Below, piece after piece: positions 7,135 through 35,200 of a DNA stretch of 64,000 nucleotides. Numbering within the stretch: the stretch's first letter is position 1; each line of letters begins with the position of its first letter. Source of the stretch: Lytechinus pictus (Eukaryota); NCBI RefSeq assembly GCF_037042905.1, contig NC_087250.1, positions 11,782,001 through 11,846,000 of the forward strand, in the 5' to 3' direction. A model generated the notes under the pieces. The model was not told the DNA's origin. It ran no database searches and saw nothing but the letters and a program-made list of their open reading frames with translations. Position numbers and translations under genes: made by a program.

Positions 7135-7709
7135 GCATAATATTTCACAAAACGTATCTATCTGAAAAATATCAAATATACATCTCTATATGAACAATTG
7201 ATGAGCATAAACATAGTTCAAAATATCATAAATCGTTACTAAATACTTAAAAAAAAAAAATTGACATAGTTAAGTGACGAATTCATTGTAGTTTTGAGAG
7301 CCATGATATGAATAACCTATTATTGTAGAAAAGTGCATTGAAAATGCCGGTTATTGCCTATCCTAAAAAAAGGATGAAATAAAATTAAGGAAGAATAAAA
7401 AAATATCTCGTAAATAACATGAATTCACTTTCATCATACCTTCATAACCACCTTCTTACAAACACTGTGGAAGATTTATTTCATTTCAACGCAACCCAAT
7501 ATAACAACGTGGACAACCATTCCACATAATATAACATGATAACTATAAAAACATAGAAAAATATATAATTTGTATACGTGCTTTTTGAAACCCTGTATAG
7601 ATTATGGTCATTCACACACTTGGCGATGTAGGCCTTTTTCTTTATTTTGCTTTAACTGTAATATCTCCTTTATTTTCTTCTTCTCTGTTTTTCTTACATG
7701 ACTTCAAAT

Positions 7710-7876
7710 TGGGCGTTGTGGCGTGCGCCTGTAATCCAAGCTATGTGGGGAAGTTACAAATTGATGCAGAGGTTCGAGCCCTAGTCACGTCTTTCGGATG
7801 GTAACATTAAAGATCGGTCCCAGACGTAAATAATCATATCTGATTGATACACGTCTGACAAAACTAAAATACACAC
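7710..7876 (+). mobile_element. SINE with a 7SL(Alu-domain)-like head, B-box, conserved central domain and (AC)n tail
   Basis: Head GGGCGTTGTGGCGTGCGCCTGTAATCCAAGCTA; B-box GGTTCGAGCCC at 7771; GTCTTTCGGATGG...TTAAAGATCGGTCCC; candidate TSD ACTTCAAAT/ACTTGAAAT. Confidence 0.7.
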
Positions 7877-8099
7877 ACTTGAAATATCCAAGGAGATGAG
7901 TGCCCGAATTATGGGGACACATGTATGTGTGCCCCACTACAATACCTTGTGGTAAGATTCGTCGTTTCAAAACTGAATCACTGAAAACTATCGTCAAAAG
8001 AAAATGTTCCAAATAATTATGAAACAATCTATCATGAAAAATACGGAACAAGATCCAACAAATTTATAACATTTCACTACCCCTCATTTCTCAACTTTT

Positions 8100-10568: not shown

Positions 10569-10606
10569 TCACCCTCACACATATACACACACCCTCACAC
10601 ACACAC

Positions 10607-10795
10607 GATAGCTCAGTCGGTAGAGCGGGGGATTCGTATTCCGGTGACCCGGGTTCGAGTCCCACTTGGTGCGCTAGTGCCCTTTGGTAAGGCATTAATC
10701 CTCAGTACCAGGTCCTTCGGAGAGGACCTTAAGCCGTCGGTCCTCTGGTTGCTTGCTTACAAGCATTCATACTTTCTTAGCAATCAGGTACAAAA
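10607..10795 (+). mobile_element. tRNA-derived SINE
   Basis: A-box TAGCTCAGTCGG, B-box GGTTCGAGTCC, then GTCCTTCGGAGAGGACCTTAAGCCGTCGGTCC; flanked by microsatellites. Confidence 0.8.
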
Positions 10796-26200: not shown

Positions 26201-29200
26201 AATAAATATATACATTTTAACGATTTTTGCTCTACAAGTCTGATTTGGTTAATGATAGCAATATTGACTGGCCTGGGGGCAAAAGGACATATATCGCCCT
26301 CACTAAATTGATATCACCCTCGTCTACGACTCGGGCGATATAAATAGAGTTTGGGCGATATATGTCGTATCGCCCCGAGGCCAGTCAATATTGCTTTATT
26401 GTTGCAAATTCATTATGGCCCGAATTCACAAAGGTGGTTTTGAAAACCCACGGTTGAATCCATTGTTTATGCAGATTTCCTGTATAAATTACGCTTAATT
26501 TAGCGCGTATCGGCGCGTGTATAAAAAATGTCAAATGCTAATGCGCGCTTTTTGTCACAGTGCGCCAAATTTACGCCTGTTACCATGGTTAGATACGCTA
26601 TTTTATTAATGAGTCCACTGTTTGAAGAGTGGACTCATGATTAAAAACATTGGAATTATGAATAAAATAGCGTGGATAACCACGGCAACAGGCGTCAATT
26701 TGGTGCACTGTGACAAAAGCGCGCATCAGCATTGGACATTGTTTATACATGCGCCCTATACGCGCTAAATTAAGCGTAATTTATACAGGAAATCTGCATA
26801 AGCCATGGATTCAACCGTGGGTTTTCAAAACCACCTTTGTGAATTCGGGCCAAGTTTTAGGAAACGGGTCCTTGGTTGTAAACTGACCTGCGCCATGCAA
26901 GTGTCAAACAGCAGCACAGCGCAGTGGGTATCTGATTATCAGTCATTTAAAAACACGCACATCTTGTAGGCCTATATAGACCGTCTATTAGCATTATCCA
27001 GATTTGGTCTAGATTGGTTAGTTTCTTAAATATGGAATTCATGTGTATGGAAATCTAACTTAAAGAGGAATATCAAATAAATATATCAGTGTGTCTTTAG
27101 AGAACACAATACAGAAATATACATTACCAGGTTTCCTTTCGGAAGCATTTGGTGCACAGATTAACCAGGTTTTGAGAAAGTATAGATTAGATTATTTGCC
27201 CGAGGTTTGACAGTTAATTTTTGTAGTTTTGTAATATACCACAGCAAAGACCAGGGTTGCGGAAGCGGGGGGGGGGGGGGGGGGGGGGGCTGGGGGCCCC
27301 CACTTTTTTCCGAAACCGTGTACAAAAACGTAAAATTTACCATATGTCTTGTCCAAGTGATTGTCTGTTGACACACTCCTGAACCCATGTTTTTTTTATA
27401 CAGCAGGGGTATGATATAATGTTTTTTTGTTAATTGTAACATAGTAGGCATACTTTTTTCCGAAACCGTGTACAAAAACGTAAAATTTACCATATGTCTT
27501 GTCCAAGTGATTGTCTGTTGACACACTCCTGAACCCATGTTTTTTTTATACAGCAGGGGTATGATATAATGTTTTTTTGTTAATTGTAACATAGTAGGCA
27601 TAAAAAGCTGGACCCCACTAGTATTCCTTTTCATTGTACAAACCTTTTTAATTTACGATTTGAATTTCATTGATCAAAGTGGATCTGAAAAAATTGTGAA
27701 CCCTTAACAAACCCTGAAAATATCTGAAAGTACTTTGACCTATGTTATTGGCCTTTGACAAGTGATTTTCTCAATGACTTTGCTGGCATGGAGCTTCTAC
27801 CTTCAGATTATCCGATTGATGTTATTTTAACTTATTAGGACACACAATATAGTCTTAATCTTTTTCTTTGACGCATGCAAGTGGATCCACAATTTAAAGA
27901 ATGGTTGGTGTTAATTTGAATCGCTCTGATGATTTTTCTGACATCCTAATCAACTCACTCTCCAACTACAAGCTCTACATCCTGAAAAGATCCGTCAGTA
28001 TTTTGACCTATGTTATTGGCCTTTGACAAGTGATTTTCTCAATGACTTTGCTGGCATGGAGCTTCTACCTTCAGATTATCCAATTGATGTATTTTAACTT
28101 ATTAGGACACACAATACAGTCTTAATCTTTTTCTTTGTTGACGCATGCTAGTGGATCCACAATTTAAAGAATGATTGGTGTTAATTTGAATCGCTCTGAT
28201 GATTTTTCTGACATCCTAATCAACTCTCTCTCCAACTACAAGTTCTACATCCTGAAAAGATCCGTCAGTACTTTGACCCATGTTCTTGGCCTTTGTATTT
28301 GGAACTCTATATATGACTTTCCTAGCAGAGAGCTTATACCTTTATTATCCAATAGATGTTATGGTAACTTATTAGAACACACAATGGTCTTAATCTTCCT
28401 TGTAGTTGATGCTACCCGTAAACGGATCCACAATGTTAACACAAGGTGAAATGTGAATGCTTACTCCCTATGTATCAGCAATTACGGTTCTCTAAGTTAA
28501 ATTCTATACTTTAGCCTTTTGATTGATAGCACTGTTAAACAATTTGAATAAACAATTAATTATCAACGGGTAATCGTAATAAGGCCAACGTACAGGAGTA
28601 TAGTCTTATAAAATAACAAAATTAACTCACTTCATTAACATATTTATCATATCTATTGCAAGCCGTATTTGTATTAGTTCTTTAAAAAAAAAACTTATTT
28701 TCATTCCTTTTTTTTTTTCCTTTTTTTCCCCCTTTTTTTCCCCCCTTTTTTTTTTTTTTTTTTATCTCGGTCTCGATACCGTTATATTAAATGGTTGTAC
28801 AATATCCATGTGCTTTATGTAAGTTAGCCGTTAAGAGAAATCATAAAGGTCTTTTGTGCACTTCGTGTGACAAATGGGTACATATATCTTGTGCCGGCGT
28901 ACCACTGAACTTGTACAATAATGTATCCCATCATTTTAATAACTGGGAATGCCCTAGGTGTATTATGCAAAATTTGCCATTCTTTGACTTTGATATTGAT
29001 GTAACCGGTAAGGCTAATGATGTTCATGGTAAGCATGGATCTGCCCAATGTAACGATTCTCTTACATGTGACTTTATTTACTCGTGCCTTTCAGGTAAAG
29101 GAATTAAATTTACTCAGTTGAATGTAGTGAGTCTTTATAAACATATCGATGAGATACGCACTATCTTGAGTTGTAATGACATACATTTACTTGCTCTCAA

Positions 29201-32200
29201 TGAAACGAGACTTGATGCGTCCATAACTGATAATGAAATAGAAGTTTCACATTACAACATTGTTCGTAAAGATAGGAATAGGTTAGGCGGTGGTGTTTCA
29301 TTTTATATTCATGAAAGTGTAAAGTTCAGTATAATTGAGGATTCTCCTATGTCAGATTTTGAAGCCATACCTGTTGTCATAAATATAAAAAATTCTAAAC
29401 CAATAATGCTCTTAAATTGGTATCGACCGCCGAATTCTGAGTCTGATATTTTGAACCATTATGAAAACTTTTCGGAATATTCGGAAACTCTAGACTGTCA
29501 TCTTATTATCATGGGTGATATCAATCTTGATATATTGAAAGAGGTTGACGATTGTACCACGAGACGATATAAGCAGATTAACAACGTATTCTCATTATCT
29601 TTTGTCAATACTACTGAATGTACCAGAGTTACAAGTCAATCTGCCTCTCTTATTGATCACATGCTAACTAACAATAGTTCTATGATTAAGTCCTCTGGTG
29701 TCATACATAATGGTGTTAGTGACCATTCGATGAGCTATCTCGTTTGAGATCCCATCATACTCATTCTGGTGTCAAGTATTGTACCTACAGGAAATTGAAA
29801 GATGTTGATATCAATAAGTACAAGTCTGATTTAACTCAGCAAAACTGGATTGAGGTTGAGTCGGAAAATGATATCGATAAAGCTACTGATAAATTTGAAA
29901 AGATGTTCCTAGAAGTTGTAAATACACATATGCCTCTTAAGACAAAGAGGGTTCGAAAAATGCAATCACCATGGATAAACGAAAGTATATTTCAAGCAAT
30001 GAAGAAAAGAGACATGGCTAAAACAAAGGCTATCAAAACCAAAAATGAGAATTTTTGGAAAGATTATCGTGTATTAAAGAATAAAGTATCATCTCTGATC
30101 AAAAAGGCTAAGAAAGATTATTATACAGAACAACTAACCAAAGATAAAAATTCGAATAATTCATGGAAAACATTATCTTCTTTGTTACCCAAGAACATTT
30201 CTTCGTCTCCACCTCAATCCAGTCAAAGTCAAACCATGGCCAACCAATTTAATCAATATTTTGCAAATATAGGTAATTTGTTGAACCTGGCCTCTGCGAC
30301 AGAAAAAGACTTAGTGCATGATGAAAACGTTACTGGTATGGCAGTTGAACATCCATTGAAACTTTGTACTGTAAGTCAAAATGATATATTGAAAGAAGTA
30401 CTACAACAAAAAAATAAGAAATCCGTGGGTTTAGACGGAATACCCATTCATATCCTAAAAATGTCCATAAATGAAATTATACGTCCAGTTAGCTATCTTA
30501 TGAATGAATCCATCGTTCAAGGTGTCTTTCCAAAGAAATGGAAAATTGCCAAAGTTATTCCGTTACACAAAAAAGGTGATCGATCAAATCCTAATAACTA
30601 CAGACCGATTTCTATTCTTTCTTGTTTATCGAAGGTTCTTGAAAGATTAATCCATAAACAGCTCGTACAACATTTAAATTGTAATAACATTATCACTTTG
30701 GACCAATCAGGCTTCCGTCCTAAACATTCTACCTCAACCGCCCTAATCAAAGTCACGGATGATTGGTTAATAGATCTTGATGATGGAAAATACACTGGTG
30801 CGGTCTTCATTGACCTCCAAAAAGCTTTTGATATGGTTAACATTCAATGTCTACTTGAAAAACTTAAAAGAGCTGGGATTAAAGAAACGAATTTGAACTG
30901 GTTTCATAGCTACCTTTCAGACAGAAAAATTGTAACATGTATTCATAACTGCAACTCTGAAGAATTACCAATCAAGCAAGGGGTTCCTCAAGGATCGATA
31001 CTAGGTCCGCTGCTTTTTATAATTTTTATTAATGATTTACCTACTATTTTCAAGTCATGCAACATCCATCTCTATGCAGATGACACTGTGATTTACTTTT
31101 CTCATAAAGATCCCCACGTAGTTCAATCAACGTTAAATAGAGAGTTGCTCATTCTTGATAGATGGATGGACATGAATAGACTTAAAATTAATTATGACAA
31201 AACAATGTGCATGCTTTTTGGAAATAGACATATGCTAAAAAAACACAATGGATTAGATTTAAGAATTGATGGTCATACCATCAAACAAGTATCTTCGCTG
31301 AAATACTTGGGTGTGTATATTGATTCAGAACTGAAATGGGATGTTCATGTTAACCACTTAAGTGAAAAGGTGGGTCGAATGATTTCGTTCCTCCGTAGAT
31401 TAAGTAAATTTATCAATAGGAATAGTTTGAAAATTATCTATCAGAGCGTTATACTACCCAACTTGGATTATGCTGATGTAATATGGCAATCTTCCTATGA
31501 CAAATATACAGATCAGCTACAAAAGTTGCAAAATAGAGCTGGTAGAATTATCCTTAATTATAATAATCGGTCACATGTTTCTATTGACTCAATTCATGAA
31601 ATAATGGAATGGCAAACCCTGAAGTCTAGGCAAAACTTTCATATTCAAACAATGATGTTTAAGATCCTCCATGATTTGGCTCCCAAATATCTAACAAAAT
31701 ACATATTTTACACCTCAAGACCTTACCATTTTCGAAAAAATAATTTGTGCCTCCCCAAACCCAGAACTAATTATTGCAAACGCACATTTTTCTATAGGGG
31801 GACTAAGTTGTTTAACAGTATCCCAAATAATATTCGTAATTGTATGACCTTAAATTCTTTTAGATCAGCGTTGTCACATTTGAGACATTGATTTCTTTTT
31901 TTTGGGGGGGTGGGGTAGTGGGGTAGGAGTAAGCAAACTGATAGTGATTTTTTTTTTCTCTCTCCTTTCCTTTTCTTTCTTCCTTCATTTCCCTCTTTTG
32001 TCTTTTCTTTTCTGTTCTCATTTTCCGCTCCCTATGACTCTCTTTTTACTTGGTCCCCATGGAAGACCAGCCGCACATATAATTGGTGCAGCTGAATATG
32101 GGTTATCCAACCGTCTCCTGTCTTAAGTTTGATCTTTTAACTTTCTTAACATGTTTCAATCAATCATTTTTTTTTCTTTTCTTTTTTTTAATCAATGTTT

Positions 32201-35200
32201 AGAATTTATTTCATTATGTATGTGTATGTTACTCCTTGTATCTCTTGTTTATATATTGTTATGTATTTTTTTATGACGGAAATAAAACAAACAAACAAAC
32301 AAACAAAAGTTATCTAATTAACTATTTATTGCAAAGAACCCATACTAACAAGCTTTGCTTTCCAGTAGGTTCCCTTTTTTCATTTCTGTATATTATATTT
32401 TTTGTGCTTTGCTATACATTGTAACTTTTGTTAAATTTTTGAATGAAAAAGAATAAATGCAATCAATCAATCATATGATTGTGATTTTTTGCATGGTCAG
32501 CCCCCACTTCGAAAACCGTTCCGCGGCCCCTGAAGACCCCGCGTTTGAAATCCTGGGTCAACCCCTGCTTAGTAATTCCTACCGATGAAAGCTCCTGGGT
32601 AAATTTCGTCTCGAATTCCACTTTCGCATCTTGGCCAATCTGTTTTAGAATGAATGTAGTTTCATCTTTGACGCATACACAATCTTTGGCCTTCCATTCA
32701 TCACAAAGTCGCTGAAAAGAGAAAAGTATACGTATACTGTAACTTATTATTAGTATCATTATTATCGTGATTATTCATATCATTATTTTATATTATTTTT
32801 CAAAACATATAGAATACAAAATTACAAACAAATCGAAGAGAAGATCAATTACAATTTTACATGAAAAAGAAAATTAGACCTGGGTCCCGTAACACAAAGT
32901 TTAGCGATTAATCGCTAATTGAAATTGCCTATCAAGATCATTGTTGCATGCGCATTTTGCTCCGTAGACTGACTAGGAACCAATCAGAATTGTTCTTTCA
33001 AATTAGTGATTAATCGCTAACATTTGTGTTACGGAGCCTGGAAGAGCGTTGGAGTGGCTGCAATTGTTTGTAAAAGGCTATTCCAATAACCATAACCCAT
33101 GGGTCCTCCTCCCAATATACATGTATATAGTATATTCATAAACATATTTGTATACTACATTAATTAAATCCCGTATATTGATTGGTTTAAATAGCATCAC
33201 ATGACCAAACATATCCTAGCTATGCTGTTGAAACAAAAGGCTCATGAAGAAAATGTGCAATTCCGTGCGGTTAGTGATGGAATAGTGCACTATTCCATTG
33301 GAAATGATGCAATATCTCGGGCGCGCCGATCTAGTACGATCTGATACGATCATTACAATTATTACAATATTAAGATCACCATTAACACTCGTGGCGCAAA
33401 TCGTAAAACGTATGGTTGAACTATGAGTACTATTATCAAGATCCGTTGTTATGAAACAAAAATGTACCAGGACTTTATGTACCAGGACTTTATTTCAAAA
33501 GTATAGATGGAATTATTCACCCCCTTTTGTATCTGATTTTATGTTTCAAACTGCTCTTAAATCAACTTTGCAATGGAAATTCCTAGAAGGACTCATACAA
33601 TTTTTCCTTTCTCCTTAAAAGAATTTCAAAATGGAAAGTGGAGGTTCGATATCTCATAAACCATCATCTCATAACAATGTTTAGTCAATAGAACTAGTAA
33701 TTTGGACCGGCCATAAGGAAGTCTATTTGCTTATTGATGTTGTTTTTGTCGGCTTAAATACATAATTGGATAGCGGTAGTTTTCAGCGAATCATTTGATT
33801 AATTAATATCACCATGTTCACCTGTCCTAGTTCACCAAAGGGGAAATAGAACTGCAAATGAATAATGGGTCTCCTGTTTTTCGGCATCTCGCTTGGCAGA
33901 AAAGCTAGCATGGCCACTCTTTTTCCTACACACATGTCATCCTTCATCGAGGCTGTGTACAATCCGGGTTTGTCCAAGTTGAAAAGCAGCTTGTCTTTCG
34001 TGATGGTGCATTCGGAAGGAGACAGTTCCCGACGAGAAACGCCTCCTCCCCCTGTTAGGTGGAAGATACACAATCAAGAAAAGCGCAGTGGTTTCATGTC
34101 AATCGTTGGAACATACAGGAAATAAGGTGCTAAAGCCAAATAAAGTGCCGATTTAGCACTTTATTTGGCTTTAGCACCTTATTTCCTGTATGGAGCTCGT
34201 ATAACGTGCTGTGACGTACCACATTAAACACCGTAAGCGCTGGAAATCAGCACCTAAACTGCAGTCACCATACCGCCTGCCTGAAGTGCTGATTTAGCAC
34301 TTATTCTTAAAAATATTTTTTGGTTATGTATTATTTTTTAGATTGAGGGAGGAAGTGAGGGGAAACCCATTAGTCGGGATTATTTACACTTTAATGCTTC
34401 TGTACTTCTTGTCTTCAATAATATTATCAACAATGAGCAATAAAATAAGGTTAATCGGCCCTAACTACTGCAAAAACTCTGGTGTTGATTTAACACCAGC
34501 CCGAAATCTATATATGTCCACACCAGATAAGTGTTAAACAACACCAGTTTCGTTTTGGTCTAACACCAGATTTAATTAATTAATTAATTAGTATTAAAAC
34601 AACATCGGCTCGATTCCAAACTGGTGTTGTTTCAATACTTCTCTGGTGTGGACATATATAGATTCCGGGCTGGTGTTAAATCAATACCGGAGTTTTTGTA
34701 GTGACAAATATATATTTTTTTAAGTACGTTCAACTGAAAGGTAAATCGTACCTTCGGTGTGATCAGAACCTTTCTCTGACTTGTGATAAACAACCACCTT
34801 TCCTTTCCCTTCAAGAGCAGCCTGCGAAAGCTCTGCACAGTGGCTCAAAATCATCTCAACCGGGCTTCCTTCGAAGTTTCCACCGACGTTGACAGTTGGA
34901 CAAATTGCTACATCATCTGTTTCGGAAACTCCTTCCATGAGGTCGGCTGATGAGATGCCAACTTTAAAGAAGGTGGAAATGGAGGTTGCACATGTGCTTA
35001 AATAACCTGACACCCTAATTTGTTTCATGCGTATTTTATTCAGTGCAACAATCTTACTATTCATTGCGTTTTAGATCAGGGCCCCGTCTTACAGAGATAC
35101 GATTGATCCAATCAATCGTATCTCTTTGGAAATCCATCAGTGTCATAATTTTGTCTTTCAGGAAATGTGCAAAATGACCTTAGTAAACGAAGGAGAACAC

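Follow-up and report, generated by a model that had tools for sequence, protein, structure and literature searches.

A young-looking SINE family headed by a piece of 7SL RNA in a sea urchin genome

The window analysed here, a stretch of 64,000 nucleotides of sea urchin DNA, carries on its forward strand one copy of a SINE of ~170 nt, corresponding to positions 2-168 of the family consensus. The element is a chimera of four modules, namely a head derived from 7SL RNA, a linker with a B-box, a central block, and a 3' hairpin followed by a tail (Table 1). Relative to the family consensus, the window copy shows five or six differences and seems to be without the first one or two bases; the consensus copy has its start one or two bases more to the 5' side, on the base with which the 7SL gene begins. 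Other copies in the genome are 95-97% identical to the copy in the window. The original prediction, made from the letters alone, had described a 7SL-like 5' stretch, an intact SRP9/14-type TGTNR motif, a tRNA-type B-box, an (AC)n tail and a short TSD with one mismatch. Direct reading found all of these features at the predicted places, the 7SL-like stretch starting at 7710/7711, where the Rfam Metazoa_SRP model also aligns. A "SINE core domain" had been named as well, and this is borne out in one respect only, as a body block that the element has in common with a tRNA-headed SINE.

Table 1. Modules and flanking features of the SINE copy, in window coordinates.
Feature	Position	Strand	Basis
TSD, 5' copy	7701..7709	+	9 bp, one mismatch to the 3' copy; read directly
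SINE copy	7710..7876	+	sequence reading, genome copies, consensus comparison
7SL-derived head (helices 2, 3, 4, U-turn; Alu A-box-equivalent region)	7709..7755	+	blastn against own 7SL genes, Rfam
UGUAAU motif	7730-7735	+	read directly
Linker with B-box	7756..7784	+	motif reading; no 7SL or tRNA similarity
tRNA-type B-box, 11-nt match	7771-7781	+	read directly
Central block common to a tRNA-headed SINE (conserved SINE body domain)	7785..7820	+	local alignment
3' hairpin, 7-bp outer stem and inner stem	7821..7857	+	MFE and centroid fold
A-rich terminal segment and (AC)n tail	7858..7878	+	(AC)4 at 7871-7878
TSD, 3' copy	7877..7885	+	first two bases overlap the AC tail; read directly

Among the 123 open frames of at least 75 aa in the window, the only Pfam matches were to the PHD, endonuclease and reverse transcriptase domains of a LINE, and no host-gene signal was found in these frames. 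This LINE is nearly intact, lies at 28791-32310 and ends in a (CAAA)n tail. Its first frame encodes a PHD finger and an endonuclease (318 aa) and its second, overlapping frame the reverse transcriptase (722 aa), with one frame change between the two. The C-terminal fragment of another LINE occupies 112-552, and the tRNA-headed SINE mentioned above is located at 10606-10795, flanked by (TA)n and (CA)n microsatellites. At gathering thresholds, Rfam returned nothing for the whole window. The genome carries a Pfam Bindin match of 236.7 bits, with a second exon at 53 bits; Bindin is associated with sea urchin sperm, and the invertebrate host that had been supposed from the sequence is thereby confirmed. 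A COX1 search aimed at a mitochondrial contig had no match, and a protein atlas search with the reverse transcriptase of the window LINE gave no indication of the taxon. In sequencing runs of a second organism, a small share (0.07-0.10) of the words of the stretch was present, a figure that has no bearing on whether the family occurs there.

The genome contains seven full 7SL genes, which score 272-283 bits against RF00017, together with many partial RF00017 matches of ~60-95 nt at 32-35 bits, which are copies of the SINE. In blastn comparisons with the 5' ends of the species' own 7SL genes, the SINE head was identical at 32/33 positions in four gene loci and at 29/29 positions for the gene L037. 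What sets the latter apart from the other 7SL genes is a paired change in helix 2, for which the SINE has both of the L037 bases (U/A). The closest pair is formed by this gene and the SINE copy L038, apparently a member of an older subfamily, with 41/45 columns identical. In 49 of the 57 full-length copies, the common 5' end of the SINE is preceded by an A, in agreement with the first base of the 7SL gene. With permissive thresholds on positions 7600-8000, 7708-7765 of the window copy aligned at 26 bits (E 5.3e-5) with helices 2-4 at the 5' end of the Rfam Metazoa_SRP model; a value under the gathering score of 70 is what a fragment of only ~50 nt would give. In the sister copy L040, the alignment to model positions 1-44 scored 32.3 bits (E 4.4e-7), and helices 2, 3 and 4 were closed in it. 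With these identities and scores and its start at the first base of the gene, the element has the 7SL-derived head of a SINE1. As judged from the alignments, which bear out the proposed kinship with 7SL, the comparisons show the first ~45-47 nt to be a copy of the species' own 7SL RNA, taken from the first base of the gene.

A different reading would make the element a tRNA-derived SINE (SINE2), the 7SL-like 5' end being due to chance or to convergence on an A-box-like sequence. The B-box is indeed of the canonical tRNA type, the central block is common to a tRNA-headed SINE, and the sea urchin SINEs in the tabulated part of one published survey are all tRNA-headed (PMC3747384). Nevertheless, the head is nearly identical to the host's own 7SL genes, with which it has its starting base in common, and the tRNA-derived head of a SINE2 was not found: ARAGORN predicted no tRNA gene in the window, and no tRNA family reached E <= 10 on the two copies searched with Rfam at permissive thresholds (the window copy and L040). 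In addition, 60 loci selected so as to favour a sibling family with a different head yielded none. The 7SL identity of the head and the tRNA negatives contradict a SINE2 identity, which we regard as very improbable.

The 7SL similarity does not continue past approximately position 47. When the remainder of the SINE was aligned with the remainder of the gene, the local score was 15, the shuffle mean being 15.1 and 266/500 shuffles reaching 15, and four older copies likewise showed no 7SL similarity past the head. Therefore, on the alignments, the head takes in the whole of the Alu domain's 5' domain (helices 2-4 and the UGUAAU U-turn) and nothing more. This bears on how the element compares with the numeric criterion for SINE1 in SINEBase (>=60% identity with 7SL over an overlap of >=60 nt), as the global alignment of the first 60 nt with 7SL has 45-46 of 62-63 columns identical (~73%), of which the real homology ends at ~45-47 nt.

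The pairings of helices 2, 3 and 4 are kept in every consensus of the three subfamilies seen. The first helix had been predicted to pair through changed bases, which holds in relation to the Rfam consensus but not as covariation within the SINE, since the head copies the species' own 7SL sequence, changed bases included. The MFE of the head and that of the whole element were no better than those of shuffled sequences (z = 0.13 and -0.04, respectively), and the structural argument thus rests on the covariance-model alignment and the 7SL identity, not on thermodynamics.

The linker (consensus 48-76) carries the B-box, and a 7-nt duplication in the linker of older subfamilies produces two overlapping B-box-like motifs. 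Its similarity to 7SL was no better than chance and it did not match the tRNA models. Six of the seven 7SL genes (L031-L036) have a conserved, T-arm-like B-box of the tRNA type 15-45 nt past the terminator T-run, and the flanks around it differ between loci, which suggests that it could be an extragenic promoter element of the 7SL genes. An extragenic downstream B-box promoter element is also known from the U6 gene of yeast. This downstream B-box is missing from the seventh gene, L037, to which the SINE head is closest. An origin of the linker from the B-box element downstream of the 7SL genes is unsupported, as the two scored 16-22 and unrelated B-box sequences 17-24; for one linker/7SL-downstream pairing taken alone, only 2/500 shuffles reached the score, a signal that disappeared when B-box-bearing controls were used.

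The central block (consensus 77-112) aligned to the tRNA-headed SINE of the window with a local score of 24, compared with 13.4 +/- 2.1 for shuffled sequences, and 0/1000 shuffles reached this score. The two elements have ~36 nt in common in this central part and differ in their 3' ends. The block may resemble the Nin-DC/Inv conserved SINE domain. The SINE domains tabulated for echinoderms include Nin, Inv, Deu, CORE and Meta, as given in the corresponding part of a published compilation (PMC5804259). Consensus positions 113-170 comprise the hairpin (113-150) and the tail. For a copy identical to the consensus, the MFE fold and the centroid fold both contain this hairpin, and from these fold models we infer that it is a candidate recognition signal for the reverse transcriptase of a partner LINE.

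The element belongs to a large family. In the assembly, the window is part of contig 6. A DNA search of this assembly with positions 7700-7890 returned 1,739 first-look candidates, and the 40 that were scored gave 41 matches with 91-100% identity on 17 contigs. A 27-nt word from the head had 1,307 matches in the genome with <=2 mismatches, a count that includes the seven 7SL genes, and a 38-nt word from the body had 1,451 with <=3 mismatches; the reversed-pattern control gave 0 in both cases. From these word counts, there are at least ~1,300-1,450 copies in the 812-Mb genome. Twenty extra loci were picked in which just one of the two words, from the head or from the body, was listed without mismatches, and all 20 were the same element: 18 begin <=7 nt from the common 5' end and two are 5'-truncated. 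SINEBase defines a SINE as an interspersed repeat of <1 kb with at least 100 copies, and the present repeat, with its length of ~170 nt, more than 1,000 word matches and copies on 17 contigs, is a SINE in this general sense. The many dispersed copies with a common 5' end, TSDs and tails that had been named as support are thus present, and the element is not single-copy.

Among 108 copies, a sample biased towards well-conserved ones, the identity to the consensus had a median of 96.5% (10th-90th percentile 87-100%). Because of this high median, and since some copies are identical to the consensus, the family looks young and recently active, at least to judge from its sequence divergence.

The family also displays the marks of LINE-mediated retroposition, i.e., TSDs, a 3' tail and 5' truncation. 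TSDs of >=6 bp adjoin the element in 17/57 full-length copies, as against 5.6% of 3,182 mismatched-flank pairs; the other 40/57 full-length copies have no TSD of >=6 bp. Clear TSDs of 8-12 bp were seen in additional loci. The tail varies in length, with (AC)4 in the window copy and (AC)3 to (AC)10 or more in others. One pattern search returned 168 places, of which 20 were viewed: 13 of these are 5'-truncated copies adjoining unrelated upstream DNA, and the remaining seven have heads with internal changes. Together, these observations show that the family has spread to more than 1,000 places by a process that leaves TSDs, tails and 5' truncations.

The copies could also be thought of as truncated 7SL retropseudogenes, or as contaminating primate Alu sequences, rather than as a self-propagating family. 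7SL retrocopies are known in marsupials and the guinea pig from the section of Kojima (2020, PMC7245038) that treats them, and the Alu-derived mir-1268 family scores 28-33 bits on the SINE head (28 on the window copy). However, the same four-module chimera was found in all copies examined, more than 1,300 of them exist with subfamilies of their own, the head matches the 7SL of the host and not a foreign 7SL, and the copies are surrounded by host flanks within long host contigs. Both identities are contradicted by the uniform chimeric structure and we consider them scarcely credible. In contrast, we assign a probability of roughly 0.85 to the reading of the locus as one copy of a recently active, four-module SINE with a 7SL head in a sea urchin, for which RNA polymerase III (Pol III) transcription, the use of a stringent LINE and a role of SRP9/14 are the steps that we infer.

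Well-defined 7SL SINEs were known only from Euarchontoglires according to the overview in Kojima (2020, PMC7245038), a paper that adds one from hagfish. The corresponding statements in Kosushkin et al. (2026, PMC13023118) place 7SL SINEs only in supraprimates and hagfish, add Urop from the shrew mole, and stress that a central deletion of ~183 nt preceded the rise of all such SINEs. In the literature, as distinct from the Repbase, Dfam and SINEBase catalogues, our searches met with no 7SL SINE described from an invertebrate, a sea urchin or an echinoderm. The present family is thus apparently the first 7SL-derived SINE seen outside vertebrates, in an echinoderm, and its architecture, with a lone 5' half of the Alu domain, a separate B-box and a tail other than poly(A), has not been described before in that literature. 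In particular, the 5' and 3' Alu-domain segments joined over a central deletion that characterize the described SINE1 families are not found here, as the 3' half is absent.

One of the closest likenesses, as far as the published descriptions of this element extend, is to SINE1-1_EBu (Ebu1-1) of the hagfish Eptatretus burgeri, which combines 5' and 3' 7SL segments with parts of RTE elements (Kojima, 2020, PMC7245038). In both cases the 7SL head comes from the host's own gene and is joined to non-7SL body modules, the tail is a short repeat instead of poly(A), the family is young, with a few thousand copies (2,363 in hagfish; PMC13023118), and the LINE used is apparently a stringent one other than L1. 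In contrast to the hagfish element, which keeps both Alu-domain segments on either side of the central deletion, the sea urchin element has only the 5' ~47 nt; the body and tail of SINE1-1_EBu come from identified RTE elements and end in (AAC)n, whereas the sea urchin element ends in (AC)n and no partner was found for it; and the sea urchin element has a separate tRNA-type B-box and an echinoderm, not a vertebrate, as host.

With Alu, B1, FLAM and Tu of Euarchontoglires and Urop of the shrew mole, as these are characterized in the relevant part of Kosushkin et al. (2026, PMC13023118), the element has in common a head that starts at 7SL position 1 and includes the UGUAAU U-turn, helices 2-4 and the A-box region, as well as a B-box ~40-50 nt downstream of the A-box region. 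Those SINEs consist of 7SL sequence only (5' and 3' parts after the ~183-nt deletion), end in poly(A) and use L1, whereas in the sea urchin element 7SL sequence is limited to the first ~47 nt, followed by a foreign body, a hairpin and (AC)n, without poly(A). Conversely, the tRNA-headed sea urchin SINEs with CR1/L2 partners (SURF1/SINE2-4c_SP and SINE2-3_SP; Ohshima, 2013, PMC3747384) are similar in the kind of host, the B-box, the central block and the non-poly(A) tail, but the tRNA-derived head given in their descriptions sets the 7SL-headed element apart.

Since the head carries the 7SL sequence of the species itself, including the helix-2 variant of L037, the comparisons support a putative independent origin of a 7SL-headed SINE in an echinoderm, as had been conjectured. 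The echinoderm lineage would then be a further independent origin of 7SL SINEs, and the first in an invertebrate.

The modules are consistent with a life cycle in which RNA polymerase III would transcribe the element from the 7SL-derived A-box region and the internal B-box. In this species, the 7SL genes appear to depend on a B-box that lies downstream of the terminator and thus outside the gene itself. A 7SL retrocopy on its own would consequently have no B-box, and a 7SL fragment would become autonomous as a Pol III unit only after gaining an internal one, from which the element's architecture would follow. A stringent LINE, probably of the CR1/L2 kind, would then recognise the 3' hairpin and the tail, and new copies would be inserted by target-primed reverse transcription. 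The published SINE-LINE pairs of sea urchins involve CR1/L2 elements, as listed in the pertinent part of that work (PMC3747384). Our searches did not retrieve a partner LINE: four pattern searches, which combined the SINE tail or body with upstream sequence other than that of the SINE, yielded nothing but variants and 5'-truncated copies of the SINE, besides three short tail fragments, and the last 65 nt had no other blastn match in 360 kb of sequence. The LINE present in the window (28791-31891) was rejected as the partner because its tail is (CAAA)n. The element appears to work with a LINE other than L1.

The folded 5' domain could, in addition, bind SRP9/14 and bring the RNA to ribosomes that are translating a LINE, as proposed for Alu. 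Such a use of the head is possible by analogy, and it becomes more plausible in the light of Moldovan, Yin and Moran (2025, PMC12199147), whose reported results include that a minimal 5' Alu domain of 46 nt associates with SRP9/14 and is required for Alu retrotransposition. That piece and the sea urchin head are nearly equal in length and are the same structural unit, although the former was part of engineered human Alu constructs tested with L1 in HeLa cells and the latter is the head of a natural element. In the host genome, an SRP14 exon was found (30.6 bits); an exon-wise Pfam search detected no SRP9, which does not show its absence. In its full form, the proposal is that the 47-nt 5' domain of 7SL alone recruits SRP9/14 to ribosomes and so helps to capture a stringent, non-L1 LINE, in the first lineage of 7SL SINEs outside vertebrates. 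We advance it tentatively, as an idea with somewhat less than an even chance of being right.

The head could instead serve only as a promoter, providing the A-box and the start site, with the added B-box completing a type-2 Pol III promoter; SRP9/14 would be uninvolved and mobilisation would depend solely on a stringent LINE that recognises the 3' hairpin and tail. This is quite conceivable, even if we would not bet on it. SINEs of stringent LINEs generally need just a LINE-like 3' end, according to the discussion of them in Kojima (2020, PMC7245038), and the location of the B-box outside six of the seven 7SL genes, downstream of the terminator, fits a need for a new internal one. Furthermore, helix 4 and its loop (consensus 31-47) are the most variable region of the element, with 0.110 differences per site compared with 0.023 for positions 1-30, and variants with deletions in this region occur at several loci. 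However, some of the deletion variants (L075, L079 and L082) have common flanks and are segmental duplicates, not amplified subfamilies, and the helix 2, 3 and 4 pairings are kept in all three subfamily consensuses. The 7SL similarity, moreover, breaks off exactly at the end of the structural 5' domain and not just past the A-box, and the Alu-domain structure is also kept in the 7SL SINEs of hagfish and mammals, as shown for the families covered in the same paper (Kojima, 2020, PMC7245038).

If the recruitment of SRP9/14 by the 5' domain is correct, docking on ribosomes through SRP9/14 would be a general and repeatedly evolved strategy of SINEs, and not a peculiarity of L1 or of poly(A). The element makes it testable whether this docking helps SINEs generally or only those that compete for L1 through poly(A) recognition. 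It offers a natural "minimal Alu domain" of about the size of the 46-nt piece needed for Alu retrotransposition in the reported constructs (PMC12199147), and a test system in the form of a recently active-looking family in a laboratory-friendly group of animals.

Several loci display further rearrangements of the SINE. At L067 (contig 13), a copy without the 7SL head is split between the B-box and the central block by an insert of ~170 bp whose ends are inverted repeats and which resembles a small DNA transposon; because of this interruption by another inserted element, the locus is uninformative regarding sibling families with other heads. Head-to-tail pairs of the SINE, ~190 bp apart and with identical Rfam scores, were observed at five places, on contigs 2, 4, 7 (two places) and 18. 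The dimer L039 and the monomer L040 have the same flanks on both sides, and the SINE is therefore either embedded there in a larger repeated unit or was spread by segmental duplication. Finally, each of the three tandem 7SL genes on contig 10 (L031, L035 and L036) has an old copy of the SINE ~36 bp upstream of it, in the same orientation as the gene. These copies are 80-88% identical to the consensus and sit inside upstream sequence that is conserved at other 7SL loci, evidently the outcome of a single insertion that was later duplicated together with the gene.
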